Shown here in pieces: positions 1 to 14,364 of a stretch of DNA of 14,364 nucleotides. This DNA comes from Gammaproteobacteria bacterium (GTDB taxonomy: Bacteria > Pseudomonadota > Gammaproteobacteria > SZUA-21). The stretch spans positions 1 to 14,364 of the forward strand of contig JALUUZ010000135.1 in assembly GCA_027021095.1 (NCBI GenBank), in the 5' to 3' direction. Under the pieces are notes generated by a model, which saw nothing but the letters and a program-made list of their open reading frames with translations, was not told the origin of the DNA and did not search any database. The position numbers and the translations under genes are program-made. Position 1 is the first letter of the stretch. Each line of letters starts with the position of its first letter.

Positions 1-469
1 CGTCGTCCAACTCGACCTGCGCCATGGTGCGGTGTTGGACGTCGACGTCGTTGTGCATGGCCTGCACCAGGATCTTTGTGGCTTGTTCACAGGAGAAAGG
101 CACCAGGATGCCATCGTATAGATCCTTGCCGGGGTTGACGCCGATGACGCGCTGTCCGCTGAGGTACTTGGCGGTGTTGGCCACCAAGCCATCCTGCCCG
201 ACTGCGACGACCAAGTCCCCGGGCTCGAACAAAAACCGGTCCAGTTCCTGCCGTTTTAGCAGGTTGCGGCGCCAATCGCCGGGAATGGCGGAGATGAGTC
301 TATGCAACGCGGACCGGTGCTGTCTGTCGCGTTCTTCGATCAAGTCGATGGACTGACCACGCTCGGCCAGGAAAAACTCAGCCTGGCCACGGGTGGCGTG
401 CCGCGCAAGCAGTTGTTCGTATTCTGTTTCACGCGTGACGATCACGACCCGTGGTACGAGGGCATTCAT
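1..469 (-). CDS. NAD kinase-like (ATP-NAD kinase/DAGK_cat fold) protein, N-terminal ~156 aa. The gene continues past the window's 5' edge. It is not in the ORF track because it is edge-truncated.
   Basis: Reverse-strand frame open from the ATG at 469..467 through position 1. Translation: MNALVPRVVIVTRETEYEQLLARHATRGQAEFFLAERGQSIDLIEERDRQHRSALHRLISAIPGDWRRNLLKRQELDRFLFEPGDLVVAVGQDGLVANTAKYLSGQRVIGVNPGKDLYDGILVPF... The 'DLVVAVGQDGLV' block corresponds to the GGDG(T) motif of NadK/PpnK-type kinases, degenerate here (GQDG). The canonical NadK 'NxGxLGFL' block is replaced by 'NPGKDLYDGIL'. The ATG overlaps the TGA of the upstream SPFH gene (ATGA), indicating translational coupling. Confidence 0.6.
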   Translation of the reverse strand, partial: MNALVPRVVIVTRETEYEQLLARHATRGQAEFFLAERGQSIDLIEERDRQHRSALHRLISAIPGDWRRNLLKRQELDRFLFEPGDLVVAVGQDGLVANTAKYLSGQRVIGVNPGKDLYDGILVPFSCEQATKILVQAMHNDVDVQHRTMAQVELDD

Positions 470-1662
470 CCTTCAATCCCGGTGTTCTGCAGTTTTTGCG
501 CGCCGGCAGCAAACAAATCCGCGAGGTTGGTCGACAGCACATCCGGGGTGATGTTGATGTGGTCGATCTTTTGCAACTTGCCGGCGATTTCCTGTAGCGC
601 CAGGGCGAATACCACATTGGCTGGCAGTGATTCATAGACAGACATGCGTTCTTTTTCGCCCGCTGCTTCGGCCAGCCCGACCGCTTGTATTTTTTCCGCT
701 TCAGCTTTACCCTCCAGGCGGATTGCATCGGCGTCTGCCGCCGCCAGGCTGCGCCGTACCTGCGCCTTGGTTTCTGCAGCGAGTTTTTGTACATCGCTGT
801 CGGATTGTGACATGATCTGCCTGCGTTCCCGCTCAGCCTCTGCTTCCAGTTTTGCACGGGAAGAAACAGCTTCAGACTGTATCCGTTCCCGTTCGATAAG
901 TGCCTTGACCGAGGCTTCTTCAACGGCGGACTGTTCCTCTACACGCCGGCGCTCATTTCTGCCTTGTTGTGAGATCAGGCTTTCTTCGCGTGCGGCCAGT
1001 TCGATTTTGCTTTGCAATTCATTTTCAGCAATGGCACGTTCTTTTTCGACGGCGAGTGCCCGGCGTTGAAAAGTCGCTTCATCTGCATTCTGCTGGATAC
1101 GCTCTCTAGTCGGAACCTGCAGGGCCTTTTCCAACTCGGCGACCGGGCTTATTTCGTTGATGCCCAGGCTGACGAGCTTCAAGCCCATTTCGGTAAAGAC
1201 GGTTTCACTCTCCATGCCCTGCTCGATGGCGTTGAGAATTTTTTCCGGTCCGTCCGTAATCAGCTGCCGTACTTCTTTGCTTGCGACATAGCGCGCTGCG
1301 TGCTTTTGCACCGTATTGGTGAACAACGCAGCCAGTTGTTCAAGAGGTGCTTTGCGGTGCAACCCGGTATCCAGGTCGATCGAGAAATCGATGCGTTCGG
1401 CCAGGCAGTCCGGGTCGGTGACACGGTAAATGAGCTCACCCTGAACGGTCGCCTCTTGAAAGTCACTCGTACGGCCTTGAAAAATAAATTGTAATTCACG
1501 GTCGTCCGTCGGCACTTCTGCGATACTGGTGCCCATGGAAGCGAACCAGAATGCAAGGCCCTTGCCGGATTTTACCAGGCGGCCATTTCTGAAACGCCGC
1601 ACGTGCATATTCGGCTCACTGCGCAGGTGTTTGAAGAAAAGTGTTTTTTTTATGTCCGTCAT
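466..1662 (-). CDS. SPFH/band-7 (flotillin/stomatin-like) domain protein with a long Glu/Ala/Arg-rich coiled-coil. No N-terminal transmembrane segment.
   Basis: 398-aa ORF. The N-terminal ~180 aa have the SPFH fold signature (HVRRFRNGRLVKSGKGLAFWF...ELIYRVTDP...). The central ~150 aa are heptad-like EA/ER-rich (RALAVEKERAIAENELQSKIELAAREES...AEAERERRQ...). A strong SD, AAGGGAGGGG, lies 5 nt upstream of the ATG at 1662. It is 16 nt downstream of the nadA stop. Confidence 0.75.
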   Translation of the reverse strand: MTDIKKTLFFKHLRSEPNMHVRRFRNGRLVKSGKGLAFWFASMGTSIAEVPTDDRELQFIFQGRTSDFQEATVQGELIYRVTDPDCLAERIDFSIDLDTGLHRKAPLEQLAALFTNTVQKHAARYVASKEVRQLITDGPEKILNAIEQGMESETVFTEMGLKLVSLGINEISPVAELEKALQVPTRERIQQNADEATFQRRALAVEKERAIAENELQSKIELAAREESLISQQGRNERRRVEEQSAVEEASVKALIERERIQSEAVSSRAKLEAEAERERRQIMSQSDSDVQKLAAETKAQVRRSLAAADADAIRLEGKAEAEKIQAVGLAEAAGEKERMSVYESLPANVVFALALQEIAGKLQKIDHINITPDVLSTNLADLFAAGAQKLQNTGIEG

Positions 1663-1678
1663 GTTTGCCCCTCCCTTG

Positions 1679-2611
1679 TCAGGCCGCGTTTTTCGCGGAG
1701 CGTTTTTTGCTGAAGTTCAGCATCCGTTCAATTGGTGCCCGGGCTTTTTCGATCGTTTCATCATCGAGATAGTCGATGACAAAGCCCTTGCCTTGTTGTG
1801 CGCGTACAACCAGGTCGACCGTGTTGCGCTTCATGTACGGGCAGGCATTACACTGACAGCCTGTATAGATCGGTGCCTGACGCAGATTCAGTTCAGGCCG
1901 AAGTTGGCGCATGTTGTGCAGCAAACCTTCTTCAGTCGCGATAAAGAGGGTTGTCGAGTCCGGGTCGCCTTCGAAGTTTTTCACCCAGTCCAGCATCTGC
2001 TTGGTGGAACCGACCATGTCGGCATGCAACAGCACCGGCAGTGGCGACTCGGGGTGTGCCAGCAGGTATGCTGTGCCCTTCGCGTTGGCCTGCTCGATCA
2101 TCCTGTTGATTTGTTCGTGTTTGAATTTATCGTGCACCTCGCAAACCGCGTTCCACACGGGCATGTCGTATCCATACTGGTAATTCAGATAGGCGCCCAT
2201 GTTGCGGTCCGGCGAGAAAATGACTTTTTTACCTTGTGCATAGAGTGCGGCAATAATGTCATCGACGTTGCGGGACGTGACGACCCAGTCTGAAACGGTT
2301 TTGTGTTCCGCGCTCGAATTGATATAACTCACGTGCACGCAGTCGGCATGTCGTTCACGCCACTGTTTCAGTGCGTCGATATCGGTCTGCGTGACCAGCG
2401 AACAGGTGGCGCCCTGGTCTGGCAGGATCACCTGTGCGTGCGGGTTCAGCATTTTGGCGGTTTCTGCCATGAACTGAACCCCGGCAAAAACGATACGGTC
2501 TGCGCGTTCACGTTGTGCGATCAGCGACAGCTCCAGGCTGTCACCGACATAGTCCGCCATCGCCTGCACTTCAGGGACAGTGTAGTAGTGTGCCAATGTC
2601 AGTGTGTTCAT
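1679..2611 (-). CDS. nadA: Quinolinate synthase A (de novo NAD biosynthesis)
   Basis: 310 aa. Clear NadA family similarity throughout (LAHYYTVPEVQAMADYVGDSLELS..., VHVSYINSSAEHK, FSPDRNMG, HPESP, CQCNACPYMK). SD GGAGGTG lies 6 nt upstream of the ATG. It starts 14 nt downstream of the nrtR stop. Confidence 0.9.
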   Translation of the reverse strand: MNTLTLAHYYTVPEVQAMADYVGDSLELSLIAQRERADRIVFAGVQFMAETAKMLNPHAQVILPDQGATCSLVTQTDIDALKQWRERHADCVHVSYINSSAEHKTVSDWVVTSRNVDDIIAALYAQGKKVIFSPDRNMGAYLNYQYGYDMPVWNAVCEVHDKFKHEQINRMIEQANAKGTAYLLAHPESPLPVLLHADMVGSTKQMLDWVKNFEGDPDSTTLFIATEEGLLHNMRQLRPELNLRQAPIYTGCQCNACPYMKRNTVDLVVRAQQGKGFVIDYLDDETIEKARAPIERMLNFSKKRSAKNAA

Positions 2612-2625
2612 GAGACACCTCCTGC

Positions 2626-3291
2626 TTACTTGATTATTTCAACCCTGCCAGGGTCGATGACGCGATAGAGTTTGGCCGGGCGGTGTGCACCCTGCCTTTT
2701 TTCTCTGCCGGTTTCTTCGATCTGTTCCAGCGCCAGTATCCATTTACGAAAGTTCCGGCGGTCGAGTTCTTCGCGAAGAATGATTTCATAGACATCCTGC
2801 AGCTCACTCAAGGTGAATTCCTGCGGCATGAACTGAAACGCAATCGTCGAGTAGTCGAGCTTGGCCACGAGCCGTTTATGGGCCATGGCAACGATCTGCC
2901 GATGATCGAAAGCCAGTTCCGGCAATGTGTCCATGTCAAACCAGTCCACCGCCTCGGCATCCGTTGCGGCCCGCAGCACCATCTGGTCTGAAGCCGCCAA
3001 GGCATAGTAGGCCACTGTTACTACACGCTCGCGCGGGTCGCGGTCGACCGCACCGAATGTGTAGAGCTGTTCGAGGTAAACGCCCTCGATTCCTGTTTCC
3101 TCGGCCAGTTCACGCCGCGCAGAGGATTCCAGGTCCTCGTCTATCTGCATAAATCCGCCGGGCAAGGCCCATGTCCCCTTGAAAGGTTCACTGCCCCGCC
3201 TGACCAGCAATAATTTCAATTGCTTGTCACGGATCGTAAACAGCACGATATCGGTGGTGATGGCAGGGTGTGGAAACTCGTATTGATACAT
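2626..3291 (-). CDS. nrtR: Nudix-related transcriptional regulator of NAD metabolism (NrtR family): N-terminal Nudix-fold ADP-ribose-binding domain plus C-terminal winged helix
   Basis: Nudix box remnants (GTWALPGGFMQIDEDLESSARRELAEETGIEG) followed by the NrtR-type C-terminal domain (LDYSTIAFQFMPQEFTLSELQDVYEIILREELDRRNFRKWI). Sits immediately upstream of nadA in the same operon. I chose the start at 3291 (MYQYEF...) rather than the track's 3324. Reasons: 3291 has the SD AAAGG 7 nt upstream, while the 3324 ATG has no SD and overlaps the predicted -10. Confidence 0.7.
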   Translation of the reverse strand: MYQYEFPHPAITTDIVLFTIRDKQLKLLLVRRGSEPFKGTWALPGGFMQIDEDLESSARRELAEETGIEGVYLEQLYTFGAVDRDPRERVVTVAYYALAASDQMVLRAATDAEAVDWFDMDTLPELAFDHRQIVAMAHKRLVAKLDYSTIAFQFMPQEFTLSELQDVYEIILREELDRRNFRKWILALEQIEETGREKRQGAHRPAKLYRVIDPGRVEIIK

Positions 3292-3313
3292 CGCGCTACC
3301 TTTGCGTACTTGA

Positions 3314-3351
3314 TACACTAACATGATAATGTATTATTTACGCAAAGTCAA
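3314..3351 (-). promoter_or_regulatory. Candidate sigma70 promoter of the nrtR-nadA-SPFH-NADK-like operon. On the minus strand: -35 TTGACT (3351..3346), 17-nt spacer, -10 TATCAT (3328..3323).
   Basis: Read directly from the minus-strand sequence TTGACTTTGCGTAAATAATACATTATCATG. Flanked by the 9-bp inverted repeat CTTTGCGTA / TACGCAAAG (3300-3308 and 3339-3347). Confidence 0.35.
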
Positions 3352-3412
3352 GGCTGCCCGGTGCTCTTGCATGGGTGGCATATAACTTGTTGATATTAAA
3401 TGGATAGCTTGT

Positions 3413-4720
3413 TTACGCGCCCAGGCCGGCCCGGTGCCGTTGAATCAGTATGCCAGCGAGCACGAGCAGGCATGGCAGCAGCAGCGCATAGGCCAGGGTA
3501 AGGAGTGTGATCGTGCTGTCGCTGTAGTGGAAGCCGTGCTGGCTCAGGCGTACCGGGCGGGAGATACCGTTCAGCGCTTCATGGTGGCTGAGCCAGTTGA
3601 AGGCCTGCAGGCCAAGGAAGCGGTTGATCCCGAGTCGCAGGTAGTTGTTGCTGAGAAAATCGCTGTCACCGAACACGATGATGCGCTGTGCAGCGCCTGG
3701 CCCCGGCGCGCGGTTTCGTTGCAGCGCGAGACCGATGGCAAAGGGCCCGGCCCGGGTGCTGTCGTGCTGCTTCAGCCAGTGCGACGCCTGTGTGGAGACG
3801 ATGGTGAAGCTGCGGTAGTTTTTTTTGCGTTCGAGCGTCAGGGCACTGGCGAGAATGAACAGCGCGTCATAGGACTGCAGGTCCTTGCGCGCAAAGATCC
3901 TGGGGCCGAAGCGGCGTGTCTTGATCAGCCATGTCGGTTTGCCGTGGCGGGTTTTTGCCATCAGTATCCCCGGCAGGCGCTGGATGCCGAGTTTACTGGC
4001 CAGTGTCTCCAGCCCGGGCCGTGCTTCCGGGTCCTGCAGCCAGAGCAGGTTGCCGCCGGCCCGCAGGTACCTCAGCAGCAGCGAGATTTCCTGTGCGCTG
4101 AACGCGGTCTTGGGGGCGGCCAGCACCAGGACACTAGTGTTGGCCGGGATGGCCGGCACACGGCGCAGGTCCAGGGTCTGTATCCGCGCATTGCGTTTTT
4201 TCAGTAACGCCGCAAAGGCAGAGTAGCCGCTTTTACTCGTATCGAACGGTGAGCGTTCCTGGTGGCCGGTGGTAAAGACGATCCAGTTGTCTTTGCCGTA
4301 GGCGAGTTGCAGCAGCGTGCTGCCGAACGATTCCTCGTCCAGCACGCGCAGTTTTTTATGCCGTCCCTGGTATTCGATGATCAGTTCCCTGGTTGCGACC
4401 ACACCGTAGCGTAACGCGAACTTGGTATCCTGCATCTGGTCGACGAATTTCAGCTTGATATCCGGTTTGATACGTTGGAAACGGGCGATGAAACGGCTGA
4501 TCTGTTTGCGGACGTCGGCGGCTTTGGGTGCGCCCTGGGCGTTGGAACGGGTGATAAAACCGTAGACCGTGACAGGCGAGTTGAGCGTCGACAGCAGGTC
4601 GACGCTGGCGCGTGACAGCGAATTCTTGTTGCCGGCGCTCAGGTCAAAGGCGAAGAATTCGTAGCGGCTGAACCAGGCGGCGGCCGCCAGCAGTAACAGG
4701 GTGATGAGTCTAGCCTGCAT
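3413..4720 (-). CDS. GldG-like auxiliary component of an ABC-type transport system (COG3225 family). N-terminal signal/anchor and C-terminal TM helix.
   Basis: 435 aa. N-terminal hydrophobic MQARLITLLLLAAAAWF and C-terminal TM LLTLAYALLLPCLLVLAGILI. The large periplasmic body is typical of GldG-like proteins that partner with ABC-2 permeases. Immediately downstream of the ATPase and permease genes. SD AAGGGGG lies 6 nt upstream of the ATG. Confidence 0.65.
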   Translation of the reverse strand: MQARLITLLLLAAAAWFSRYEFFAFDLSAGNKNSLSRASVDLLSTLNSPVTVYGFITRSNAQGAPKAADVRKQISRFIARFQRIKPDIKLKFVDQMQDTKFALRYGVVATRELIIEYQGRHKKLRVLDEESFGSTLLQLAYGKDNWIVFTTGHQERSPFDTSKSGYSAFAALLKKRNARIQTLDLRRVPAIPANTSVLVLAAPKTAFSAQEISLLLRYLRAGGNLLWLQDPEARPGLETLASKLGIQRLPGILMAKTRHGKPTWLIKTRRFGPRIFARKDLQSYDALFILASALTLERKKNYRSFTIVSTQASHWLKQHDSTRAGPFAIGLALQRNRAPGPGAAQRIIVFGDSDFLSNNYLRLGINRFLGLQAFNWLSHHEALNGISRPVRLSQHGFHYSDSTITLLTLAYALLLPCLLVLAGILIQRHRAGLGA

Positions 4721-4731
4721 TGCTCACCCCC
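4710..4731 (-). repeat. Partial repeat copy (terminal 19-21 nt, GGGGTGAGCAATGCAGGCTAG on the minus strand). It provides the gldG-like SD region and ATG.
   Basis: 19-nt perfect identity with 4875-4893 (reverse orientation). 20 of 21 nt identical with the minus-strand copy at 4912..4892. Confidence 0.75.
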
Positions 4732-4845
4732 TTTCTACTGCGACGGCGCCATGGCACGCCCTGGCTGGCTTTCGCTCGGTCGGCGTGCTCGACATAGTGC
4801 CGGCTATGCCTGCGCGCTCCTCGGTCGCGAAAGCCACCCAGGCCG

Positions 4846-4893
4846 CACCCTTGCACCGTCTCGCGACGAACGGTGGTGAGCAATGCAGGCTAG
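4846..4893 (+). repeat. Intergenic repeat copy A (full): CACCCTTGCACCGTCTCGCGACGAACGGTGGTGAGCAATGCAGGCTAG
   Basis: Shares a ≥37-nt core with copies at 12116-12153 and 13861-13910 (reverse), with 2-3 mismatches. A diverged copy lies at 10928-10966. Confidence 0.8.
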
Positions 4894-4910
4894 CCCGCAT
4901 TGCTCACCAC
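4872..4910. repeat. Perfect 14-bp-stem hairpin/palindrome GTGGTGAGCAATGC-aggctagcccg-GCATTGCTCACCAC. It is formed by the end of repeat copy A and an inverted partial copy that encodes the permease C-terminus.
   Basis: Read directly. The loop itself contains the palindrome GGCTAGCC. The permease stop TAG is the CTA at 4890-4892, in the loop. Confidence 0.85.
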
Positions 4911-5657
4911 GCTGCTGCGGCTGAAACGCTGGAAACGCAGCACGGTCAGGTAGAGAAAGAATACCGTGACCAGCACGAAATACAGCAGGTCTACCGAGCT
5001 CCACAGGCCGGCGGTCGGCAGATCGAGATGTCCGAGCAGCGACACGAACTGGATCAGCTGCTCGATCCAACCGACTTTCAGGCTGGCAAAGATCTCGATA
5101 AACACAAAGAAAAGCAGGACAAATGTCGCACTCAGCAGCGCGATGACCGGTTGTGTGGTCAGGCTCGACAGAAACAATGCTATCGCGCAATAGGCCAGTA
5201 CGGCCAATACCGTGCCGGACCAGGCACTGAACACGGTCCCGAGGTCGATATTGCCGCCGGGCATCACCCCGGCCGCTGTCAGCAGCATCAGTGCCAGCAT
5301 ACACAGCAGGAACATCAGCAGGCCGAGGAATTTGCCGAGCACGAGCTGTGTCATGCTGACAGGCTTGGTCAGCAGAAAAAGCAGGCTGCCATTGCGCCGT
5401 TGCAGTGTGACCGACCAGGTGGTCAGCGCCGGTACCAGCAGCAGGACAAAATAGAGCGTCAGCGCGAAAAAGAGTACGATGATTTCATAGGTCGGCCCCT
5501 TGGCGAGCGTCGCGGCGTAGTGCAGTTTGATTTTGTAGACACGCATCAGGAAAAACAGCCCTATGCCCATCGCCAGCTGCACAGCCGCGAGCATAAACCA
5601 GCCCAGCCTGGTTTTGAACAGGGCGCTGAATTCATGCCTGGCGATCCACAGCGTCAC
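4890..5657 (-). CDS. ABC-2 family transporter permease (GldF-like)
   Basis: 255 aa. Six predicted TM segments, ABC-2 permease-like. The GTG start at 5657 overlaps the TGA of the upstream ATPase gene (GTGA). The C-terminal six codons and the TAG stop lie inside the repeat hairpin at 4890-4912. Confidence 0.7.
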   Translation of the reverse strand: MTLWIARHEFSALFKTRLGWFMLAAVQLAMGIGLFFLMRVYKIKLHYAATLAKGPTYEIIVLFFALTLYFVLLLVPALTTWSVTLQRRNGSLLFLLTKPVSMTQLVLGKFLGLLMFLLCMLALMLLTAAGVMPGGNIDLGTVFSAWSGTVLAVLAYCAIALFLSSLTTQPVIALLSATFVLLFFVFIEIFASLKVGWIEQLIQFVSLLGHLDLPTAGLWSSVDLLYFVLVTVFFLYLTVLRFQRFSRSSVVSNAG

Positions 5658-6664
5658 CGCGACTGCCGCCTTTGTGCCGCCGGGGTGCGGGCAGCGGTGC
5701 TGTTGCCGCTGTCGTCTGTGGCCTGCAGTGCCTGGTTTTCAGCGTCAAGCGCCTGTGTGAACAGCTCTTCCAGCGACTGCTGCTGTGGAGTGATTTCGGC
5801 GATGTGCCAGTTGTGCTGGTTGGCCAGCTTGATGATGGCCTGGGTCGTGCTGTTGCGCTGTCGGCAATGGACCAGGTAACTCTGGTCGGGTCGGGCATCC
5901 ACCTCGCTGACGCCGTCGAGTCTGCGCAGCTGCCCGATATCAGGCGGTGTCTCGAACCGGACCTTGAGCAGCTCAGTGCGGGCGTGATTTTGCAGTGCCG
6001 CCGCCGGGCCGTTGTAGACGAGCCTGCCCTGTTTGAGGACTGCCAGGCTGGTGCAGGTCTGCCCGACTTCGGCCAGCAGATGGCTGGACAGGATGATGCC
6101 GCTGGTTTTCCCTAGAGTCTGCAGCAGCTGCCTGATGACTTTGACCTGTAGAGGGTCCAGGCCGTCGGTGGGCTCGTCGAGCAGAATGATGTCAGGCTGG
6201 TGTATGATCGCCTGTGCGAGATTGGCGCGCTGCAGCATCCCCTTGGACAATGAACTGACCAGCCGGTTTCCGAGTTTTTCCAGGCCGCACAGCTGCCTGG
6301 TCTGCTCGAGACGTTCACGCCAGTCTGCCGTCCTTCCGCGGCGGCTGAATCCAAGCGCGTAACGCAGGTTTTCGTCGATGGTCAAAGAGGGATATAAGAC
6401 GTTGCGGTCTGGCTGGTAGCCAATGTGCGCGCGCAGCCTGTGCGTGTCGTGGTGCAGCGGCTGGCCCAGGATTTCGATGCCGCCGGCAGTCGGCCTCAGC
6501 AGGCCACTGAGCAGTTTGAGCAGGCTGCTTTTGCCGGCACCGTTGGGACCGAGCAAGCCCAGTATTTCGCCACGCTGCAACTGCAGGTTGATGTTTTCCA
6601 CGCCCAGCCTGTTGGTATAGTGATAACTCAGGTTGGTGGTTTTGATCAGGATTTCTTCGGTCAT
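5654..6664 (-). CDS. ABC transporter ATP-binding protein (GldA-like)
   Basis: Walker A GPNGAGKSS, ABC signature LSKGMLQRANLA, Walker B IILLDEP, H-loop SSHLL. The track ORF begins at a TTG (6757). I trimmed to the ATG at 6664 (MTEEILIKTTNLSYHY...), which lies just before the conserved N-terminus. Confidence 0.8.
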   Translation of the reverse strand: MTEEILIKTTNLSYHYTNRLGVENINLQLQRGEILGLLGPNGAGKSSLLKLLSGLLRPTAGGIEILGQPLHHDTHRLRAHIGYQPDRNVLYPSLTIDENLRYALGFSRRGRTADWRERLEQTRQLCGLEKLGNRLVSSLSKGMLQRANLAQAIIHQPDIILLDEPTDGLDPLQVKVIRQLLQTLGKTSGIILSSHLLAEVGQTCTSLAVLKQGRLVYNGPAAALQNHARTELLKVRFETPPDIGQLRRLDGVSEVDARPDQSYLVHCRQRNSTTQAIIKLANQHNWHIAEITPQQQSLEELFTQALDAENQALQATDDSGNSTAARTPAAQRRQSR

Positions 6665-6774
6665 GGACCAGGTATCAATCAGTTTGTTCTTTTTTTTTGC
6701 AGCATGATTCGGGCCAGATTGGACGGCGCCAGGGTTTGGCGGAATAAAAACCCGCAATTTGGTAAGATTGTGTA

Positions 6775-8748
6775 ATGAAGTTGCTTGGTGTCGATACCGG
6801 TGGAACCTTTACGGACTTTGTGTACTACGATGGCCGGCGGCTGCGCCTGCACAAGACCCTGTCGACGCCGCATGCGCCGGAACAGGCCATCTTACAGGGG
6901 TTGACCGACCTGCAGTTGAACCTCGAAGACCTGGATATCGTGCACGGTTCGACAGTAGTGACCAATGCAGTGCTGGAAAGGAAGGGAGTCAGGACCGTCT
7001 ATATTACCAACCAGGGGTTTGCTGACCTGCTGACCATCGGCCGCCAGGCCCGGCGCCGGTTGTATGCGCTGCAGCCGCAGGCTGACGAGCCGCCGGTCGC
7101 GGCGGAGCTTTGTCTCGAGACCGGGGGCAGGCTGGGCGCAGACGGCAGCGTACTGCAACCGCTCGAGCCACACCAGCTCGATACCCTGCGCCGGCAGGTC
7201 GAGCAGCTGGCGCCGGCTGCCGTGGCGATCAACCTGCTGTTTTCCTATCTCGACGATCGTTTCGAAAGGCAGATCGAAGAAGTGATGCCGGACTCTGTGT
7301 TTGTTTCACGTTCTTCACAGGTACTGGCTGAAATGGGTGAGTATGAGCGTGGCATCGTGACCTGGCTCAATGCCTGGATAGGGCCGTTGGCACAGCAGTA
7401 CCTGCAGCGCCTGGAGCAGCAGGTTGCACCGGCACGCCTGACCGTGATGCAAAGCCATGGCGGCACCATGGCCGCCAGCCAGGCCGGTCGGCATGCGGTC
7501 GGTATGTTGTTGTCCGGCCCGGCCGGCGGCTTGAAAGGCGCCCAGTATATCGCCGGCCTGAGCGGCAGGACGAGACTGCTGACACTGGACATGGGCGGAA
7601 CCTCGACGGATGTCGCGCTGATCGATGGCGACATCAGCCTGACCACCGAGGGTGGTATCGACCGTTACCCGGTCGCGGTGCCGATGGTCGACATGCATAC
7701 CATCGGCGCCGGAGGGGGCTCGATCGCACGGGTCGATGCCGGGGGGCTGCTGCAGGTGGGTCCGGAATCTGCAGGCGCCGCCCCGGGACCTGCCTGCTAT
7801 GGCAGGGGAGGTGAACAGCCGACGGTGACCGATGCCAACCTGGTGCTCGGCCGTATTCCGGCAGACCGGTTTCTTGGTGGACGGATGAGCCTGGACCCGG
7901 CCGCAGCGGAGGCCGCCGTCGGCCGCCTGGCCGCACAGCTTGGTGTCAGCCGCCTGGAGTGTGCCGAGGGTATCGTGCGTGTCGCCAATGAGCACATGAG
8001 TGGTGCATTGCGCAAGATCAGTGTCGAACGCGGCATCGATCCGCGGGGGTTTACACTGGTCTCATTTGGCGGCGCCGGTGGTCTGCATGTGTGTGCACTG
8101 GCGCAATCGCTCGAGATAGGAAAGATACTGATACCCCGCTATGCCGGGGTGTTGTCAGCGCTGGGGATGCTGGTGGCGCCACGTTCGAGGCAGCTGTCAC
8201 GTACGCTCAACACAAGACTTGAAACCGCTGACACCGATACGATCGAGGCGGTGTACGCGGCGCTGATCCGTTCCGGCACAGCAGAACTCCTGGCAGAGGG
8301 CATCGCGCGTGAGGAGCTGCAGATACAGCGGCTCGCGGACCTGCGCTATCTCGGGCAATCTTATTGCCTGACCCTGCCGTGGCAGCAACCGGCGGCGCTG
8401 GCGGACAGTTTTCACCAGGCGCATCAGCAGCGTTATGGGCATGATCTGGATGAGCCGGTCGAGTTGGCGACACTGCGCGTCAGCCTGTTTGCCAGGCCGC
8501 GCCCCTTGGTGCTGGACGAACCTGGCGGGCACGGTATACAGCCACCGTCTTCGTTACCTCCATCGGCAAGCGGAGGCCTTGTACACTACCTGCGGGATCG
8601 GCTTAAACCGGGTGAAAGACTGACAGCACCGGCGCTGGTGATCGAATCGGTGGCGACCACCTATCTGGCCGAGGGCTGGGAGGGCTTTTGCGATGCGGAT
8701 GGCAACCTGTTGCTGCACAGGAAAAGTACCGCGGGATGCGCCGATTGA
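6775..8748 (+). CDS. hyuA: Hydantoinase A / N-methylhydantoinase A / 5-oxoprolinase A-subunit family protein (ATP-dependent). A standalone gene. No partner hyuB-like gene was found in this window.
   Basis: 657 aa. N-terminal MKLLGVDTGGTFTDFV (hydantoinase/oxoprolinase N-terminal domain). Central ASKHA-like glycine-rich motifs (LDMGGTSTDVALI, GAGGGSIARVDAGG). Family-typical length. SD GGTAAG lies 8 nt upstream. Confidence 0.85.
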   Translation: MKLLGVDTGGTFTDFVYYDGRRLRLHKTLSTPHAPEQAILQGLTDLQLNLEDLDIVHGSTVVTNAVLERKGVRTVYITNQGFADLLTIGRQARRRLYALQPQADEPPVAAELCLETGGRLGADGSVLQPLEPHQLDTLRRQVEQLAPAAVAINLLFSYLDDRFERQIEEVMPDSVFVSRSSQVLAEMGEYERGIVTWLNAWIGPLAQQYLQRLEQQVAPARLTVMQSHGGTMAASQAGRHAVGMLLSGPAGGLKGAQYIAGLSGRTRLLTLDMGGTSTDVALIDGDISLTTEGGIDRYPVAVPMVDMHTIGAGGGSIARVDAGGLLQVGPESAGAAPGPACYGRGGEQPTVTDANLVLGRIPADRFLGGRMSLDPAAAEAAVGRLAAQLGVSRLECAEGIVRVANEHMSGALRKISVERGIDPRGFTLVSFGGAGGLHVCALAQSLEIGKILIPRYAGVLSALGMLVAPRSRQLSRTLNTRLETADTDTIEAVYAALIRSGTAELLAEGIAREELQIQRLADLRYLGQSYCLTLPWQQPAALADSFHQAHQQRYGHDLDEPVELATLRVSLFARPRPLVLDEPGGHGIQPPSSLPPSASGGLVHYLRDRLKPGERLTAPALVIESVATTYLAEGWEGFCDADGNLLLHRKSTAGCAD

Positions 8749-8909
8749 GTACAAGCGGAAAAGCCAGGCTGGGCCGGTGTGCCGGGTGAGTGTATCTGTT
8801 AAGATATCGCTAACCAAGTCAGCCCCGATCCGCTATACTTTGCGGACCAAAATAGGAGTATTTTCCCTACAGTTTTAGTGGGAGATTTTTCTCTGGACCC
8901 TTGGCAGTG

Positions 8910-8949
8910 AATACTATAGTATTGCCAGCAATATGATGGTTTTTATAAC
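8910..8949 (+). promoter_or_regulatory. Candidate desaturase promoter (-35 TTGCCA 8922-8927, -10 TATAAC 8944-8949). A perfect 14-bp palindrome AATACTATAGTATT (8910-8923) overlaps the -35.
   Basis: Read directly from sequence. The palindrome is perfect. The region is AT-rich and lies 35-75 nt upstream of the desA ATG. Confidence 0.35.
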
Positions 8950-8983
8950 CCCTTGAAAGATAAAGAAGATATAGGCCCTCCGT

Positions 8984-10192
8984 ATGATAGATTCAATATT
9001 GGACTTTTTGCATAACGGCCTTACTGGTTTCAGTATTGGCGCAATGTTTATTACCGCTTTGATCGCGGTGCAGTTTACGATTTTCTGTGTGACGCTGTTC
9101 CTGCACAGGTGTCAGGCGCACAGAGGCATAGAATTTCATCCTGTGTTGGCCCATATCGTGCGATTCTGGTTATGGATTGCAACCGGGATGATCACCAAAG
9201 AGTGGGTGGCGATTCACCGTAAACACCATGCGACCTGCGAGACCAAGGAGGACCCGCACAGCCCGAAGATCTATGGCATCCGCAAGATTCTGCTCGAAGG
9301 CTCCGAGCTCTATCGCAAGGCCGCCAAAGACCAGGAACTGCTCGAGCGGTACGGCCACGGCACGCCGGACGACTGGATCGAACGCCATGTGTATACCAGG
9401 CATCGTATTCTCGGCGTGATCCTGATGATGTTTGCCAGTATTGCTGCATTCGGTGTCCTCGGTCTGACTTTCTGGGCCTTTATGATGATCTGGATTCCGT
9501 TCTGGGCGGCCGGTATGATCAACGGCACCGCGCACTATGTCGGTTACCGTAATTTCGAGACGCCGGACACCTCGACCAATCTGTATCCGCTGGCGATCTG
9601 GATCGGTGGGGAGGAGCTGCATAACAATCACCATTCCTTTCCGAGTTCGGCGAAGTTTTCGATCAAATGGTGGGAGTTCGATATCGGCTGGTTGTACATC
9701 CGTGTGCTTGGTTTTTTCGGCCTGATCAAGGTCAAGAAGGTCGCGCCCAAGGTCTATATCGATTCCGGCAAGGATTCGATCGATATGGAGACGATCAAGG
9801 CGATCGTCGTCAACCGGGTCAATGTGATGGCCGACTATGCGCGGCAGGTGATTACGCCGATGGTCAAGAAATCATGGCGCGAAATGCCTTCAGCGGCCAA
9901 TTTCAGTGTACGCAAGGTCAAGTCATTGCTGGTACGCGAGCACAGCATGATGGACCCAAGCTCTGAAAAGGCATTGAACGTAGTGCTGAGCGACAACCAG
10001 AGCCTGAAAACCATCTACAATTTCCGCATCCAGCTGCAACAGATCTGGGACCGGGCGGCGGCCAGTCACGAAACACTGGTCCAGGCATTGAAAGACTGGT
10101 GTGTACAGGCCGAGGCAACCGGGATCAAAGCGTTGCAGGACTTTGCACGCAGCCTGCATGGTTATACACGCGCTGTACCGACAAGCGTTTGA
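8984..10192 (+). CDS. desA: Membrane acyl-lipid/acyl-CoA delta-9-type fatty acid desaturase, with a ~150-aa C-terminal extension
   Basis: Three His boxes in canonical spacing (HRCQAHR, HRKHHA, HNNHH). Hydrophobic segments flank them. The overall 402-aa architecture resembles Pseudomonas-type DesA. Confidence 0.85.
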   Translation: MIDSILDFLHNGLTGFSIGAMFITALIAVQFTIFCVTLFLHRCQAHRGIEFHPVLAHIVRFWLWIATGMITKEWVAIHRKHHATCETKEDPHSPKIYGIRKILLEGSELYRKAAKDQELLERYGHGTPDDWIERHVYTRHRILGVILMMFASIAAFGVLGLTFWAFMMIWIPFWAAGMINGTAHYVGYRNFETPDTSTNLYPLAIWIGGEELHNNHHSFPSSAKFSIKWWEFDIGWLYIRVLGFFGLIKVKKVAPKVYIDSGKDSIDMETIKAIVVNRVNVMADYARQVITPMVKKSWREMPSAANFSVRKVKSLLVREHSMMDPSSEKALNVVLSDNQSLKTIYNFRIQLQQIWDRAAASHETLVQALKDWCVQAEATGIKALQDFARSLHGYTRAVPTSV

Positions 10193-10240
10193 TCGCATGC
10201 TGGCGGTTCACGGAGGAACCGTTTGCTATCACCAATAAAA

Positions 10241-10272
10241 AACCCGGCATCGTCATGATGCCGGGTTTTTTT
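10241..10272. terminator. Bidirectional rho-independent terminator shared by desA (+) and rpmG (-)
   Basis: AACCCGGCATC-gtcat-GATGCCGGGTT is a perfect 11-bp stem. It is preceded by A6 and followed by T7, so it can function on either strand. Confidence 0.65.
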
Positions 10273-10295
10273 GTTTGGGCTGCCTTGCGTGTTCG

Positions 10296-10466
10296 TTACT
10301 TGATCTTGGCTTCTTTGTAAGCCACGTGCTTACGGACCACCGGGTCGTATTTCCTGACTTCCATCTTTTCCGGGTGGGTACGCTTGTTTTTACTAGTGGT
10401 ATAGAAGTGCCCGGTTCCGGCAGAAGAAACCAGCCTGATCTTGTCGCGCTTGCTTTTACCAGCCAT
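10296..10466 (-). CDS. rpmG: 50S ribosomal protein L33 (56 aa). Absent from the ORF track because it is under 60 aa.
   Basis: Translation [56 protein letters not shown] is near-identical in pattern to E. coli L33. The SD AGGA is upstream. Confidence 0.9.
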
Positions 10467-10511
10467 TGCTCTGTTCCTGTAGTTCGTTGTAAACCTGTGT
10501 GCTCAAAAAGT

Positions 10512-10748
10512 TCAGACCCGGACGCCGCGTTTGCGTATCTCGCTCAGTACCTGGTCGATGCCTTTTTTGTCGATAATCCGTAAGCCTTTTGACGACAGGC
10601 GCAGTTTGACCCATCGCTTTTCGCTTTCGACCCAGATTCGATGGGTCTGCAGATTCGGCAGGAAGCGTCGCTTGGTTTTATTGTTGGCATGTGAGACATT
10701 GTTGCCTGACATCGGACGTTTGCCTGTTACCTGACATACTCTGGACAT
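10512..10748 (-). CDS. rpmB: 50S ribosomal protein L28
   Basis: [34 protein letters not shown]...[14 protein letters not shown] has high identity to E. coli L28. Confidence 0.95.
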
Positions 10749-10801
10749 TGTACTCGCCTTCTAGTATTTGAATCCTGATACATTATAAAACAAAGCGGGT
10801 G

Positions 10802-10830
10802 ATTTTACCTGCCCATTGTCCGAGATGCAA
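10802..10830 (-). promoter_or_regulatory. Candidate rpmBG promoter on the minus strand: -35 TTGCAT (10830..10825), 17 nt, -10 TAAAAT (10807..10802)
   Basis: Minus-strand sequence TTGCATctcggacaatgggcaggTAAAAT lies about 55 nt upstream of the rpmB ATG. Confidence 0.4.
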
Positions 10831-10927
10831 GCAGCACCATGTAACTCATTGTTTCTTGGTAGATAGCACCTGATCTCATACCTTTTTACTCCATTCATAA
10901 CGAGGCCGCGCAAAGGCATGCCTTCAC

Positions 10928-10966
10928 GCGGTCTCGCTGCGAACAGTAGCGAGCAGTGCGGGCTAG
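10928..10966 (+). repeat. Intergenic repeat copy D (diverged, ~29/39 identity to copy A). It ends in GGGCTAG, whose CTA is the stop codon (minus strand) of the His-rich lipoprotein gene.
   Basis: GCGGTCTCGCTGCGAACAGTAGCGAGCAGTGCGGGCTAG versus ACCGTCTCGCGACGAACGGTGGTGAGCAATGCAGGCTAG. Followed by the palindrome AAGGCATGCCTT hairpin at 10903-10930. Confidence 0.55.
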
Positions 10967-11178
10967 TGGACGTCGGAGTGGACGTCGTCCTCGACGTACT
11001 CCACCGGGCCGTCGACATGGCCATAGTGGTCGTATCCGGAATGATGGCCGGTGTTGTGGCTGTTATGGCCCGAGGAATTGTTGTGACCGTGGCTGCTCCG
11101 GGTTTGCGAATGGCCTTCACATCCGGCCAGGCCGACGCTGGCAGCGGCAATCAGTGAAATCATCAGAATCTTTTTCAT
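10963..11178 (-). CDS. Small secreted His-rich lipoprotein (71 aa). Signal peptide plus lipobox LAGC. The mature ~51 aa contains 13 His and an acidic tail. Putative periplasmic metal-binding protein.
   Basis: MKKILMISLIAAASVGLAGC|EGHSQTRSSHGHNNSSGHNSHNTGHHSGYDHYGHVDGPVEYVEDDVHSDVH. Strong SD AAGGGAGA lies 5 nt upstream of the ATG at 11178. The track's longer 88-aa version starts at an upstream codon that has no SD. The TAG stop is the CTAG end of repeat copy D. Confidence 0.6.
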   Translation of the reverse strand: MKKILMISLIAAASVGLAGCEGHSQTRSSHGHNNSSGHNSHNTGHHSGYDHYGHVDGPVEYVEDDVHSDVH

Positions 11179-11337
11179 TGGTTCTCCCTTTTTTGGTTGG
11201 CTGTTGTAAAAAGTCAATACCTGACTCATCCTGATGATATAGGATGGCGAATTTCAGGGGTGATGTCCATAGAAAATCACCAAATGACTGTGAATCTTAA
11301 CGTACTCTTTGCATTTTTGGTCTTGTATAAAAATTAA

Positions 11338-12012
11338 TCAAAGCAGTCCACGCTCGGCGAACGACACCAACTCACCATCGCCAATCACAAAATGGTCGAG
11401 CACCGAGACATCCACGACTTCCAGGGTGGACTTGAGCGTAACCGTCAAAGTCCGGTCGGCCTGGCTGGGTTCGGGAATGCCCGAAGGGTGGTTGTGTGCC
11501 AGGATAACGGCCGCCGCATTGTGGTGCAGACAGCGTTTGACCAGTTCCCGCGGGTGGACGCTGGCGCCGTTGATCGTGCCGAAAAACATTTTCTCGAAGG
11601 TAATGAGTCGATAGCGGTTGTCGAGAAAGAGACAGGCAAAGATTTCCTGTTCGCAGTCTCTAAGCTCCGCCAGCAGGTAGTCTTTGCAATAGCGCGGATT
11701 GTTCAGTGTGCGCCCACGCTGCAGCTTCTCGCGTTGCTGGCGCAGATTCATCTCCATCACCGCCTGCAACAGCGCATACTTGGCGCTGCCGAGTCCGGGA
11801 ATCCGCCTGAAGTCATTGTATTTGGCCGTCAGGATATTACGCAGCCCGCCATAGCGGGAGAGCAGTTCACGTGCCAGGTCCAGCGCCGATTTGCCCTTGC
11901 TGCCGGTGCCAAGAAGAATCGCCAGCAGTTCCGAATCACTCAATGCGCTGGCACCCAGTGCCAGGAGTTTTTCCCGTGGCCGCTCCTGTTCCGGCCAGTC
12001 TTTGATGCTCAT
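11338..12012 (-). CDS. radC: RadC/YicR-family JAB-domain protein (UPF0758)
   Basis: 224 aa. N-terminal helix-hairpin-helix-like region ([27 protein letters not shown]). C-terminal JAMM motif (HNHPSG...S..D). Shows the conserved gammaproteobacterial synteny: next to rpmBG and divergent from coaBC-dut. Confidence 0.85.
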
Positions 12013-12115
12013 GCAGCAAAGCTAACCTGAGTCGGCGTGGTGCGGCAAGCCTTGCAGCTTGTTGATTCTACGAGTTGCCTGCTGTGTCCGGTTTACGGTG
12101 CCGGCCCCGTCCCCG

Positions 12116-12153
12116 CCGTCTCGCGACGAACGGTGGTGAGAAATGCGGGCTGG
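12116..12153 (+). repeat. Intergenic repeat copy B: CCGTCTCGCGACGAACGGTGGTGAGAAATGCGGGCTGG. It lies 30 nt upstream of the coaBC ATG.
   Basis: 26-nt perfect match to copy A, then 8 of 10 matching. Confidence 0.8.
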
Positions 12154-12183
12154 CGTCGGCATAATATCTGTTACAATCGGCGT

Positions 12184-13410
12184 ATGAAACAGCTGTCTGG
12201 CAAAAGAGTGTTGTTGGGAGTCTGTGGCAGCATTGCAGCCTATAAAAGTGCAGAGCTTGTCAGAGACCTGCGTGATGCCGGTGCCGAAGTCCGGGTAGTG
12301 ATGACCGAGGCCGCGACAGAGTTCATTACGCCATTGACACTGCAGGCATTGTCCGGTCACCCTGTACGTACCGGCTTGGTCGATACCGCCGCAGAGGCGG
12401 CGATGGGACACATCGAACTTGCGCGCTGGCCTGATGCCGTGTTGGTGGCGCCCGCCAGTGCGGATTTCATTGCCCGGCTGGCACAGGGCAGGGCGGATGA
12501 TCTGCTGGCCGCGTTGTGCCTGGCGACACGGGCACCGGTCGCTTTGGCCCCGGCGATGAATGCGGGGATGTGGGAGAATGCAGCAACCCGTGCAAACATC
12601 GATAAGCTGACCCGCCAGGGTGTGGCCTTTTTTGGCCCGGTTTCCGGTGCACTCGCTTGTGGTGAGCAGGGGCCGGGAAGAATGATCGATAATCGAACGA
12701 TTATCGACAAGCTGGCAGCGCTGTTTCCTTCCGCTGCGTTACAGGGGGTTGCAGTGCTGGTTTCCGCCGGGCCGACACGCGAGGCGATCGATCCGGTCAG
12801 GTATCTGAGTAACCGCAGTTCGGGTAAGATGGGTTTCGCGGTTGCCGCCGCCGCGGTCGAGGCCGGTGCGCAGGTGACACTGATCAGCGGCCCGGTTGCG
12901 TTGCCGACCCCGGAACGGGTAAAGAGAGTGGATGTCATCAGTGCTGCGCAGATGTATCGAGCGGTCATGGAGCATGCGCCGGCTCACCAGATATTTGTTG
13001 CGGCGGCGGCAGTGGCTGATTTCGTCCCGCAGGCGTTTGCACAACAGAAACTGAAAAAAGAAAAATTTTCGGCAGAGGACGGATTTGTACTCAGGCTGAA
13101 ACAGAGTCCGGATATCCTTGCCGAACTGGCCGGACGCGAGCAACGGCCTTTTCTGGTTGGTTTTGCAGCAGAGACGGAGTCGGTGGAGCAAAACGGGTGT
13201 GCCAAGCTGCAGCGCAAAAAGCTGGATATGATTGCGATCAACGATGTCAGCGAAGGCCGCGGTTTCGACCGGGATGAAAATGAATTATTGGTCTTGTGGC
13301 CAGGTGGGCGAGCGCGGCTGGAACTGGCCGGCAAGGGCAGGCTGGCACGTGAGCTGATGGGGTTGATCGCTGACAGGTACCGGGAGCACTATGAAAAAAA
13401 TACAACTTAA
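12184..13410 (+). CDS. coaBC: Bifunctional phosphopantothenoylcysteine decarboxylase / phosphopantothenate-cysteine ligase
   Basis: [44 protein letters not shown]... aligns with the E. coli Dfp N-terminus. It is 408 aa from the ATG at 12184. The track's 12037 GTG start would add 49 residues with no homology and would run through a repeat copy. Confidence 0.9.
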
Positions 13411-13846
13411 GCTGCTGAATGACAAAATCGGCAATGAAATACCCTTGCCGGACTATGCTACCGATGGTTCAGCTGGAATGGATCTGCGTGCCTGCCTGGA
13501 CGGTCCGGTGACGATTGCGCCAGGCGAGACCCGGCTCATTCCCACCGGCATCGCAATCCACCTGGATGACCCGGGTATGGCGGCGACGATCCTGCCGAGG
13601 TCCGGCCTGGGGCACAAGCATGGGATCGTGCTGGGTAACCTGGTCGGCCTGATCGATTCCGACTATCAAGGTGAGCTTTTTATCTCGTGTTGGAATCGTG
13701 GCAAAACGGCATATACTATCGAGGTGGGTGATCGAATTGCGCAACTGGTCATAGTGCCGGTCGTCAGGGCGGAGTTTGAGCTGGTGCAGGCGTTCGATGC
13801 CAGTGCGCGCGGCAGCGGAGGCTTTGGTCACACGGGACGCACTTGA
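13391..13846 (+). CDS. dut: dUTP diphosphatase
   Basis: 151 aa with typical dUTPase motifs ([38 protein letters not shown]). It overlaps the coaBC 3' end by 20 nt, as in E. coli. Confidence 0.92.
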
Positions 13847-13875
13847 AGCCAGGTGTTTGCCTGGCCCGGATTTCT
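13847..13875 (+). terminator. Probable dut terminator: GCCAGG-tgtttg-CCTGGC followed by ccggaTTTCTT
   Basis: 6-bp GC stem directly after the TGA, followed by a T-rich tract. It is immediately followed by repeat copy C. Confidence 0.4.
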
Positions 13876-13910
13876 TACCACCGTTCGTCGCGAGACGGAG
13901 CAAGGGTGTG
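13861..13910 (-). repeat. Intergenic repeat copy C (reverse orientation): CACACCCTTGCTCCGTCTCGCGACGAACGGTGGTAAGAAATCCGGGCCAG
   Basis: Includes the CACCCTTGC extension also seen in copy A. Lies immediately after the dut terminator hairpin. Confidence 0.8.
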
Positions 13911-13979
13911 GGCTATCAGTGATGGAGCCTCCAAGGCTTCGCAATGAGACTTTTGGGTTGTCAGCTTTGGTAGGATCGA

Positions 13980-14364
13980 ATGGCGCATAACGGAAAGCAG
14001 GACTCCAGCCGGCAATTCGTGGGGAGCGCAAGCCTGGGTGCAGCCTTTATTCTCGTCGCCATCATGATCGTGACCGGCCTGTCCGGGCTGGGTTACTACC
14101 TGTTGGCGGAATTCGAACGTACGCAGCAGCTTGCCGCTGACAAACGCAACCAGGCAGTGGCCAGGGCCTATGCCGGGACTGTCAGTAACCTGCTGCGTCA
14201 TTATACGGCTCTGCTGGACAGGCTGGTACTGGACAAGGAACTGCCCGGCCTGTTTGCCGATCCTGATAAGGCCAAGCTGGCGGCCAAGGAAAACCGGCTG
14301 CGACGACTCATCCCGCACGCAGTCCGGCTCAAGCTGTTGCGCAAGGGGATCGGCGATACGGATC
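13980..14364 (+). CDS. Membrane-anchored protein, N-terminal 128 aa (one TM helix then a soluble domain). It continues past the window's 3' edge. Function unknown.
   Basis: Open frame from the ATG at 13980 (SD AGGA 4-5 nt upstream) to the end of the window. Translation: MAHNGKQDSSRQFVGSASLGAAFILVAIMIVTGLSGLGYYLLAEFERTQQLAADKRNQAVARAYAGTVSNLLRHYTALLDRLVLDK... GC-rich third positions typical of this genome. Preferred over the antisense track ORF 13875..14318. Confidence 0.5.
   Translation, partial: MAHNGKQDSSRQFVGSASLGAAFILVAIMIVTGLSGLGYYLLAEFERTQQLAADKRNQAVARAYAGTVSNLLRHYTALLDRLVLDKELPGLFADPDKAKLAAKENRLRRLIPHAVRLKLLRKGIGDTD

Follow-up and report, generated by a model that had tools for sequence, protein, structure and literature searches.

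A non-autonomous IS1380-family element and the stub of an older copy probably make up the junction of two operon genes in a gammaproteobacterium

How can a repeated sequence lie across the boundary of two adjacent genes, reach into both of them and leave both reading frames open? This question is raised by a stretch of 14,364 nucleotides from a Gammaproteobacteria bacterium (GTDB lineage Pseudomonadota; Gammaproteobacteria; SZUA-21; GenBank assembly GCA_027021095.1, contig JALUUZ010000135.1, positions 1 to 14,364), here called the window, in which an ABC-2 permease gene and a gldG-like gene, both on the minus strand, meet at a cluster of near-identical repeats. An earlier note, made from the letters of the window, had proposed that the end of a small repeat gives a stop codon to the permease gene and a Shine-Dalgarno (SD) sequence and ATG to gldG. 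We found that the region is probably a non-autonomous miniature inverted-repeat transposable element (MITE) of an insertion sequence (IS) of the IS1380 family, adjoining the stub of an older copy. This grade applies to our explanation as a whole, that is, the identity of the MITE, its properties at gene boundaries, and the history and the effects on expression that we propose for it. The features of the junction are given below, with TIR standing for terminal inverted repeat.

4890–5657, minus strand: ABC-2 (GldF-like) permease gene, assigned by Pfam ABC2_membrane_2/3, homologues and alignment
3413–4720, minus strand: gene for a GldG-like ABC auxiliary protein, assigned by Pfam ABC_transp_aux
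4710–4893, plus strand: the putative complete MITE, with a 176-bp core (4714–4889) between CTAGs at 4710–4713 and 4890–4893
4714–4735, plus strand: left TIR, whose minus strand holds the gldG SD GGGGGTGA (4724–4731) and ATG (4718–4720)
4868–4889, plus strand: right TIR, GAACGGTGGTGAGCAATGCAGG
4890–4893: CTAG common to the full copy and the stub; CTA at 4890–4892 is the permease TAG on the minus strand
4894–4921, plus strand: putative stub of a second copy, left-end type, whose minus strand codes for the permease tail (SRS)SVVSNAG

A search of the window that allowed up to three mismatches found the 19-mer GGTGAGCAATGCAGGCTAG exactly at 4710–4728 (minus strand) and 4875–4893 (plus strand), with one mismatch at 4890–4908 (minus strand) and with three mismatches at 12135–12153 (plus strand). 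Three of these copies lie within 4710–4910, and 200 dinucleotide-preserving shuffles gave no match at all. The claim that the junction is repeat-derived was thus borne out. The permease open reading frame (ORF) ends in GTG GTG AGC AAT GCG GGC TAG, and the gldG-like ORF begins, 169 nt beyond that end, with ATG CAG GCT AGA. This ATG is preceded by a TGA two codons upstream, and no canonical start follows in the same frame before codon 96, which lies beyond the N-terminal membrane helix; therefore, the ATG within the TIR appears to be the only possible gldG start. On these frames, the last 7–10 codons of the permease, (SRS)SVVSNAG, together with its TAG stop, appear to derive from the element, as do the gldG SD, the ATG, codons 1–3 (MQA) and two nucleotides of codon 4. 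The hairpin that had been described between the permease-end repeat and the copy next to it also held up: its arms, 4873–4891 and 4892–4910, are 19 nt long, 95% complementary and directly adjacent, and 4873–4910 folds as RNA into a hairpin of 17–18 bp (−32.9 kcal/mol).

The extent of the repeat, as first described, had to be redrawn. What had been taken for an inverted copy plus a spacer of about 110 nt between two direct copies is better described as a single 184-bp MITE and a stub of 21–31 nt. The MITE at 4710–4893 matches positions 2–184 of a family profile (nhmmer, E 3e-58); its arms, 4710–4735 and 4868–4893, are 92% complementary and identical over the outer 19 nt, and its TIRs of about 22 nt (CCCGCATTTCTCACCACC...) are the same as those of IS1380-type IS copies in metagenome loci. 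Positions 4890–4921 look like the stub of a second, older copy that has its CTAG in common with the full one: the stretch 4894–4921 aligns to profile positions 2–32, and it scores higher there than against the right end. The MITE has no ORF of its own and is touched only by the two flanking genes and by spurious run-through ORFs. It had no match among plasmids by blastn, and 4697–4925 had none in Rfam 15 at E ≤ 1.

We recovered the same element in other genomes. A scan of public genomes found the conserved core CCGTCTCGCGACGAACGG in Thiohalobacter thiocyanaticus, in three contigs of Lysobacterales metagenome-assembled genomes (MAGs), in at least four contigs of the gammaproteobacterial MAG PMV_4.23 and in another Pseudomonadota MAG; the remaining matches were chance matches in coding DNA. 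Extension into the flanks delimited a conserved unit some 184 nt long, bounded by TIRs of 21–22 nt, in which the left and right halves are distinct. A scan of metagenomes for the TIR returned at least 120 stretches, and the family statistics given throughout rest on the matches listed. In these, a profile built from seven copies found at least 110 non-overlapping copies in at least 76 loci, at least 43 of them full-length. The window itself carries one full copy, one stub and three remnants. Together, the copies across genomes and metagenome loci, 16 of whose 135 ends fall on the stops of long open frames, uphold the description of a dispersed element that is tolerated at gene boundaries.

The copies also vary in size. 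An internally deleted form of 155–158 nt recurs (L113:1678–1834, L128, L132, L140, L164 and L068), longer copies of 217–274 nt carry internal insertions (L009, L063, L166 and L053), and L061:3642–3695 is a mini-element of 54 nt from TIR to TIR. One-ended remnants have recurrent inner boundaries, both in the window (12115–12153 and 13858–13911) and in L061, L108, L164, L166 and L157, with further cases in L092, L051, L103, L123 and L136. Right-end remnants start at profile position 145/146 (six cases), 134 (four) or 110 (five), and the stubs in the window and in locus L013, both of the left-end type, stop about 32–39 nt from the end. Random deletion does not predict such recurrent boundaries, which might reflect mosaic subfamilies or a breakpoint guided by structure.

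The parentage of the element is indicated by loci in which the same ends enclose a transposase. In L080, L086 and L156, both TIRs stand 1.6–1.75 kb apart around an ORF of 438–497 aa for an IS1380-family transposase, and in six further loci one TIR adjoins an IS1380-type transposase gene, which makes at least nine such loci among the matches listed. The transposases of these metagenome-locus IS copies match PF13701 (E ~1e-147 and ~1e-161) and the NCBIfam model NF033539 transpos_IS1380 (E 1e-104; 350 bits against a cut-off of 180). Since identical TIRs surround an IS1380-family transposase, we assign the element as a MITE of an IS of this family. It has most of the features by which MITEs are defined, being short (below about 300 bp) and non-coding, with TIRs common to an autonomous IS and many dispersed copies; its target duplication is putative and its mobility presumed.

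The four bases just beyond the TIR are CTAG in 34 of 60 left and 54 of 85 right ends, and nearly all other flanks are TTAG, TTAA or CTAA, so that the flanks follow the pattern YTAR. Both flanks are CTAG in 18 of 40 pairs, with TTAA/TTAA and TTAG/TTAG found once each, and every IS flank that lies inside its contig is CTAG. This tetranucleotide is about nine-fold under-represented in the family loci (0.44 per kb). Elements of the IS1380 family make direct repeats of 4–5 bp. On account of the flank statistics, the identical IS flanks and these known repeats, we read CTAG as most likely the duplicated target rather than a part of the TIR. IS1247, a member of the family, is listed with a 5-bp repeat (PMC3281130), and IS1380 transposases provide the prokaryotic outgroup for piggyBac, an element that duplicates TTAA (PMC10813416). 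A TA duplication of the IS630 kind was also weighed: sequence alone does not separate it from a 4-nt duplication, and the IS1380 parentage favors 4 nt. The flanks also show an asymmetry in loci L050–L169, with a left TTAG and a right CTAG six times and the reverse once. As a speculation, 4-nt overhangs from the donor site might have been ligated into a non-identical YTAR target, in a manner like that of piggyBac. In addition, the motif CTAG-GAGCCTGTCGG(A/G)-YTTAG recurs beside MITE ends and elsewhere (L053, L062, L098, L106, L112 and L113); it may mark the end of a different element that targets CTAG, or a site at which insertion is preferred.

Element-free relatives of the operon show what the junction may have replaced. 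In a set of 5.8 billion proteins, no more than two are close to the permease (82% and 64% identical); a search for it in a collection of genome contigs, one that seemingly holds neither the source genome nor the 82% relative, gave no match. Both relatives sit in an ATPase–permease–gldG operon like that of the window, and their junctions are compact: TAG, 12 nt and ATG in locus L002, and TAG, 8 nt and ATG in L004. These junctions have no similarity to the TIR, no 19-mer and no overlap of stop and start, and there is no family copy within 16 kb of them. The permease C-termini part exactly at the onset of the repeat, with RFQRF-SRSSVVSNAG-stop in the window against RFHRF-RHDSRCT-stop and RFSRF-YHTGIAD-stop in the relatives. 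The gldG product is 70% identical to its L002 orthologue over the full length, with window residue 1 at L002 residue 9, and its stretch ahead of the conserved (Y/H)EFFAFD motif is 19 residues long, against 26 and 23 in the relatives. The earlier note had looked to orthologous junctions for an empty site with a single 19-mer and overlapping stop and start. The compact, element-free sites are there; the 19-mer and the overlap are not, and the junctions are too diverged to be aligned base by base. As an ancestor, the 11-nt overlap that had been proposed gives way to unrelated sequence with spacers of 12 and 8 nt, and it is plausible only as an element-derived intermediate from just before the full copy inserted.

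The most economical reading of these data would be a history in three steps. A first copy would have entered a CTAG (nCT-AGA) near gldG codon 8–10, where the outward ATG of the element would have allowed the gene still to be translated. Next, some 200 nt would have been deleted, comprising the permease's own tail and stop, the spacer, the former gldG start and most of the first copy; the permease would thereby have been joined in frame with the stub, and ATGCGGGCTAG would have been left as an 11-nt overlap of stop and start; the intermediate, stub-only allele of the junction would have read ...GTGGTGAGCAATGCGGGCTAGACTCATC... The present full copy would then have entered the CTAG of the stub. 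This second insertion would have been neutral for both proteins, because each side regains the CTAG and the symmetric TIR. A second locus, L013:2200–2620 in a Lysobacterales MAG (JBFJNB010000005.1), has a stub, a full copy and a start at a TIR ATG as in the window, with the following features.

2447–3424 of L013, minus strand: ABC ATPase gene, whose product ends ...ASQQEGSER-stop inside a 39-nt left-end stub
2258–2440 of L013: full MITE
1171–2268 of L013, minus strand: ABC-2 permease gene, with its apparent start at the ATG of the far TIR

Here, the TGA of the ATPase overlaps the ATG of the stub as ATGA. The layout of L013 lends independent support to a history in which a stub came before a full copy. 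In L106, too, a full copy, a CTAG and a TIR stub stand together.

Why would the ends of this element act as stops and starts at all? For the stops, an open frame of 200 codons or more has its stop exactly at the element end in 16 of 135 cases; the other two frames yield 4 cases each, and YTAG sites elsewhere in the same loci set a baseline of 5.0%. All ten of the stop-coincident ORFs that were tested are intact genes, with Pfam domains that end no more than a few residues short of the stop; among them are genes for PanC, PmbA, TruD, an LpxL-type acyltransferase, a sulfatase, an RlpA/SPOR protein and GumN. In L017, two convergent genes each have their stop in one of the two flanks of the element. 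A YTAG flank sets a TAG at each end, on the strand that reads into the element, and in most family copies the "supplied" stop would most likely be the gene's own C-TAG, a target re-formed after insertion. The proposal that the element supplies the TAG thus stands in part: the permease stop is element-derived, and the TAG itself belongs to the flanking YTAR, here CTAG, which is likely the duplicated target.

For the starts, each TIR reads outward as GGTGGTGA-GAA-ATG-CGG-GCT-AGN (in general form GGTGGTGA-N3-ATG-CNG-GCT-AGN), and the frame of its ATG passes the CTAG as GCT-AGN without a stop. Of the 8 positions of GGUGGUGA, 7 agree with the anti-SD complement GGAGGUGA. The TIR ATG shares its frame with an open frame of at least 200 codons at 11 ends, compared with 3 ends for the other open frame. 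For the ABC-2 permease of L013, the Pfam match begins at residue 9, and the TIR ATG is therefore taken as the start there. It is likely the start in L105, L032 and L019 as well, and in the cases of RluD, QueA and TatT the true start is probably downstream of it. We take YTAR siting and the outward SD-ATG to explain the compatibility of the family with gene boundaries, including the junction studied here.

At the RNA level, the 184-nt unit forms a single long hairpin (z = −8.6 for DNA and −8.9 for RNA). Across 21 copies, compensatory changes occur in 19 of 54 pairs, compared with 7.6 ± 1.6 in shuffles and 1–4 in slid controls. The hairpin shows no strand bias, with G-U and A-C mismatches similarly frequent, and so the constraint need not act on RNA. 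No terminator or promoter was found in the element, and the two weak terminator-like matches in 4500–5100 both lie within coding regions; the permease and gldG are therefore likely co-transcribed. At equilibrium, the predicted mRNA fold buries the gldG SD and AUG (probability of an unpaired AUG 0.002; opening cost 18.8 kcal/mol). The duplex of the SD with the 3' end of 16S rRNA is predicted at −16.8 kcal/mol in the window, −11.0 for the consensus TIR, and −5.8 and −2.4 for the relatives' native sites. The stub, which is transcribed first, could pair with the near TIR (−32.9 kcal/mol) and so free the gldG ribosome-binding site; alternatively, termination of a ribosome at the permease TAG could open the hairpin at its base.

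These features invite other explanations of the locus. If the stub and MITE had been selected as a device for translational coupling or mRNA processing, the three TIRs would form a pairing switch (1:2 versus 2:3) that sets the ratio of GldG to permease. The sequestered SD and AUG, the stub as an earlier-transcribed competitor, the strong pairing of the window SD with 16S rRNA relative to the consensus TIR, the covariation of the hairpin, and the recurrence of stub plus full copy at the ABC-transporter junction of L013 and in L106 would all fit such a device. However, the cases number only two or three, neutral landing pads explain their recurrence equally well, and covariation without strand bias does not call for action at the RNA level; we consider this selection unlikely. 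Somewhat less doubtful, though still improbable in our view, is a broader proposal in which the family as a whole is adapted to gene boundaries, with the YTAG target and the TIR forming a portable module of stop, SD and start that is able to replace native termini, stubs serving as neutral landing pads, stub plus full copy acting as an RNA switch by alternative pairing, and the layout of L013 recurring through selection. The converse idea, that the 19-mer is native to an overlapping junction and that the element expanded around it so that the direct copies represent a long target-site duplication, draws on the two direct copies that flank the rest of the element, on the coherent 11-nt stop/start overlap, in the correct frames, that a single copy would give, and on the analogous ATGA overlap at the L013 stub. 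Yet the 19-mer is the TIR of a family spread over many unrelated genomes and of an IS1380-type IS, the orthologous junctions hold nothing similar and no overlap, and no transposition mechanism yields a target-site duplication of about 21–31 bp equal to the element's own TIR, which makes this origin very improbable.

We give still less credence to two further accounts. Repeats of the repetitive extragenic palindromic (REP/REPIN) type, moved by a RAYT (REP-associated tyrosine transposase; IS200/IS605-like), would also present long hairpin units with inverted arms and many dispersed intergenic copies and remnants; such units are copies of one short REP with a conserved GTAG-type head at the 5' end, are linked to a RAYT gene and lack a flanking repeat. 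But the ends of our element (CCCGC... beside YTAR) are identical to those of transposase-carrying IS1380-family elements, YTAR is present on both sides, the halves are distinct sequences rather than two copies of one REP, and no RAYT gene was seen beside any copy, although no systematic RAYT search was made; a REP origin therefore seems scarcely credible. A chimera or other assembly artefact from repeat collapse in a metagenome comes to mind because repeats often break or mis-join assemblies and many family copies lie at contig ends. Against this, a second, independently assembled contig from the same population (L001) is 99.79% identical to the window and has the same junction, with 3 of 30 single-nucleotide polymorphisms (SNPs) inside the region, and both ORFs are open and in frame; since two independent assemblies agree, we regard the junction as real and an artefact as extremely improbable. 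The SNPs between the two contigs are clustered, 15 of 30 in 42–324 and 6 of 30 in 1808–2029, which suggests local recombination or strain mixing.

We therefore retain the reading of a MITE of an IS1380-family IS beside an older stub, against which several observations weigh. The similarity of the stub past the 21-nt TIR is weak, with 6 of 11 further positions matching, and the relatives, at 82% and 64% identity, are too diverged to show where the original target lay or in which order the events took place. Six TTAG/CTAG flank pairs misfit a simple 4-bp duplication. The joined flanks of 38 full copies gave no clean pair of filled and empty sites; the single candidate, L140 against L126, is so diverged that it does not fix the target sequence. 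The 20.8 kb of the source genome that were read contain no transposase of the parent IS, and both the use of the TIR ATG and the RNA switch are things we infer from sequence.

The element resembles several known systems. Correia elements (CREE/NEMIS) are about 100–190 bp long, have TIRs, form hairpins in mRNA, lie at or between operon genes, carry TAG in their ends and can alter the termini or expression of their neighbors; their 26-nt TIR is specific to Neisseria and they duplicate TA. The window element works alike, as a hairpin element with TIRs sited at gene boundaries, and differs in its TIR (CCCGCATTTCTCACCACC), its YTAR flank, its occurrence in environmental Gammaproteobacteria and its identifiable parent IS. 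Rickettsia palindromic elements (RPEs) are inserted in frame inside ORFs and are translated through, adding residues to proteins. They too are palindromic repeats in contact with coding sequence to which they contribute residues; in contrast, the window element stands between ORFs, serves the genes through its ends alone, as stop and start signals, and is unrelated to RPEs in sequence. The likeness to Rickettsia RPEs and Neisseria Correia elements that had been drawn for this junction is thus good as analogy and does not extend to membership. To the IS1380 family (IS1380, IS1247, ISEcp1 and ISPme1) the element is tied by the PF13701/NF033539 transposase found with this TIR, by ends that begin CC and by a short flanking repeat; it differs in that the window holds a non-coding derivative only and that its flank is a 4-nt YTAR, compared with the 5-bp repeat of IS1247. 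A member of this family, ISEcp1, drives the expression of downstream genes. The nearest counterpart in kind is MITEPsy1 of Pseudomonas syringae, a 100-nt derivative of the IS5 family with an 18-nt TIR that targets CTAG or YTAA and duplicates 4 nt (PMC3189936). Both are small, non-coding and multi-copy, have TIRs common with an autonomous IS and target CTAG/YTAA; MITEPsy1 has an IS5 parent and no sequence similarity to the window element, which is 184 nt long, folds as a hairpin over its full length and carries an outward SD and ATG. Literature searches for the core and TIR sequences found no paper, nor did they find one describing an IS1380-derived MITE.

The remaining copies in the window are decayed remnants.

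10921–10966, plus strand: copy D, a decayed right-end remnant
12115–12153, plus strand: copy B, a 39-nt right-end remnant between radC and coaBC, with its flank decayed to CTGG
13858–13911, minus strand: copy C, 11 nt past the stop of dut, a right-end remnant of 54 nt whose flank has decayed to CCAG

Copy D had been said to give the TAG stop of a small lipoprotein, and it does: the stop (10963–10965) of the lipoprotein ORF at 10963–11178/11229 (minus strand) lies inside the flanking CTAG (10963–10966). At the corresponding site of L002 the sequences diverge, and the L002 contig ends about 225 nt upstream of rpmB. The further suggestion that copy B places an SD and ATG upstream of coaBC is right as to the ATG, which exists, and wrong if that ATG is taken as the coaBC start. 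The 457-aa coaBC call from GTG 12037 runs through copy B, and its Flavoprotein domain starts at residue 56; therefore, the real coaBC start is taken to be ATG 12184 and the call to be over-extended. The copy B ATG (12143) opens a frame of 14 codons whose TGA (12185–12187) forms an ATGA overlap with the ATG of coaBC. Between the two ATGs there is a TACAAT box, so that the 14-codon frame may not be transcribed.

Two other observations concern neighboring parts of the window. A 402-aa ORF at 8984–10192 (plus strand) has Pfam matches to FA_desaturase (residues 22–233) and DDE_Tnp_ISL3 (residues 285–396); the same ORF, with both matches, is kept in L002, which suggests a genuine protein, fused or mis-matched, and not a piece of an IS. 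Between this desaturase-like ORF and rpmG, 10181–10287 gave weak Rfam matches on both strands, far below gathering thresholds (Thr_leader, 28 and 27 bits; sX11, 26 bits), which most likely reflect a palindromic terminator.

Together, these results point to an abundant and apparently undescribed MITE of the IS1380 (piggyBac-related) group in environmental Gammaproteobacteria. It represents no new class of system and is a known kind of element. For gene annotation, such repeats flag over-extended or mis-started gene calls beside them, as at coaBC. The junction itself provides a sequence-level example of a mobile element that would have rewritten both ends of adjacent operon genes without inactivating either, and it suggests a simple rule of tolerance for the family: a target tetranucleotide that contains a stop, and a start signal inside the TIR.

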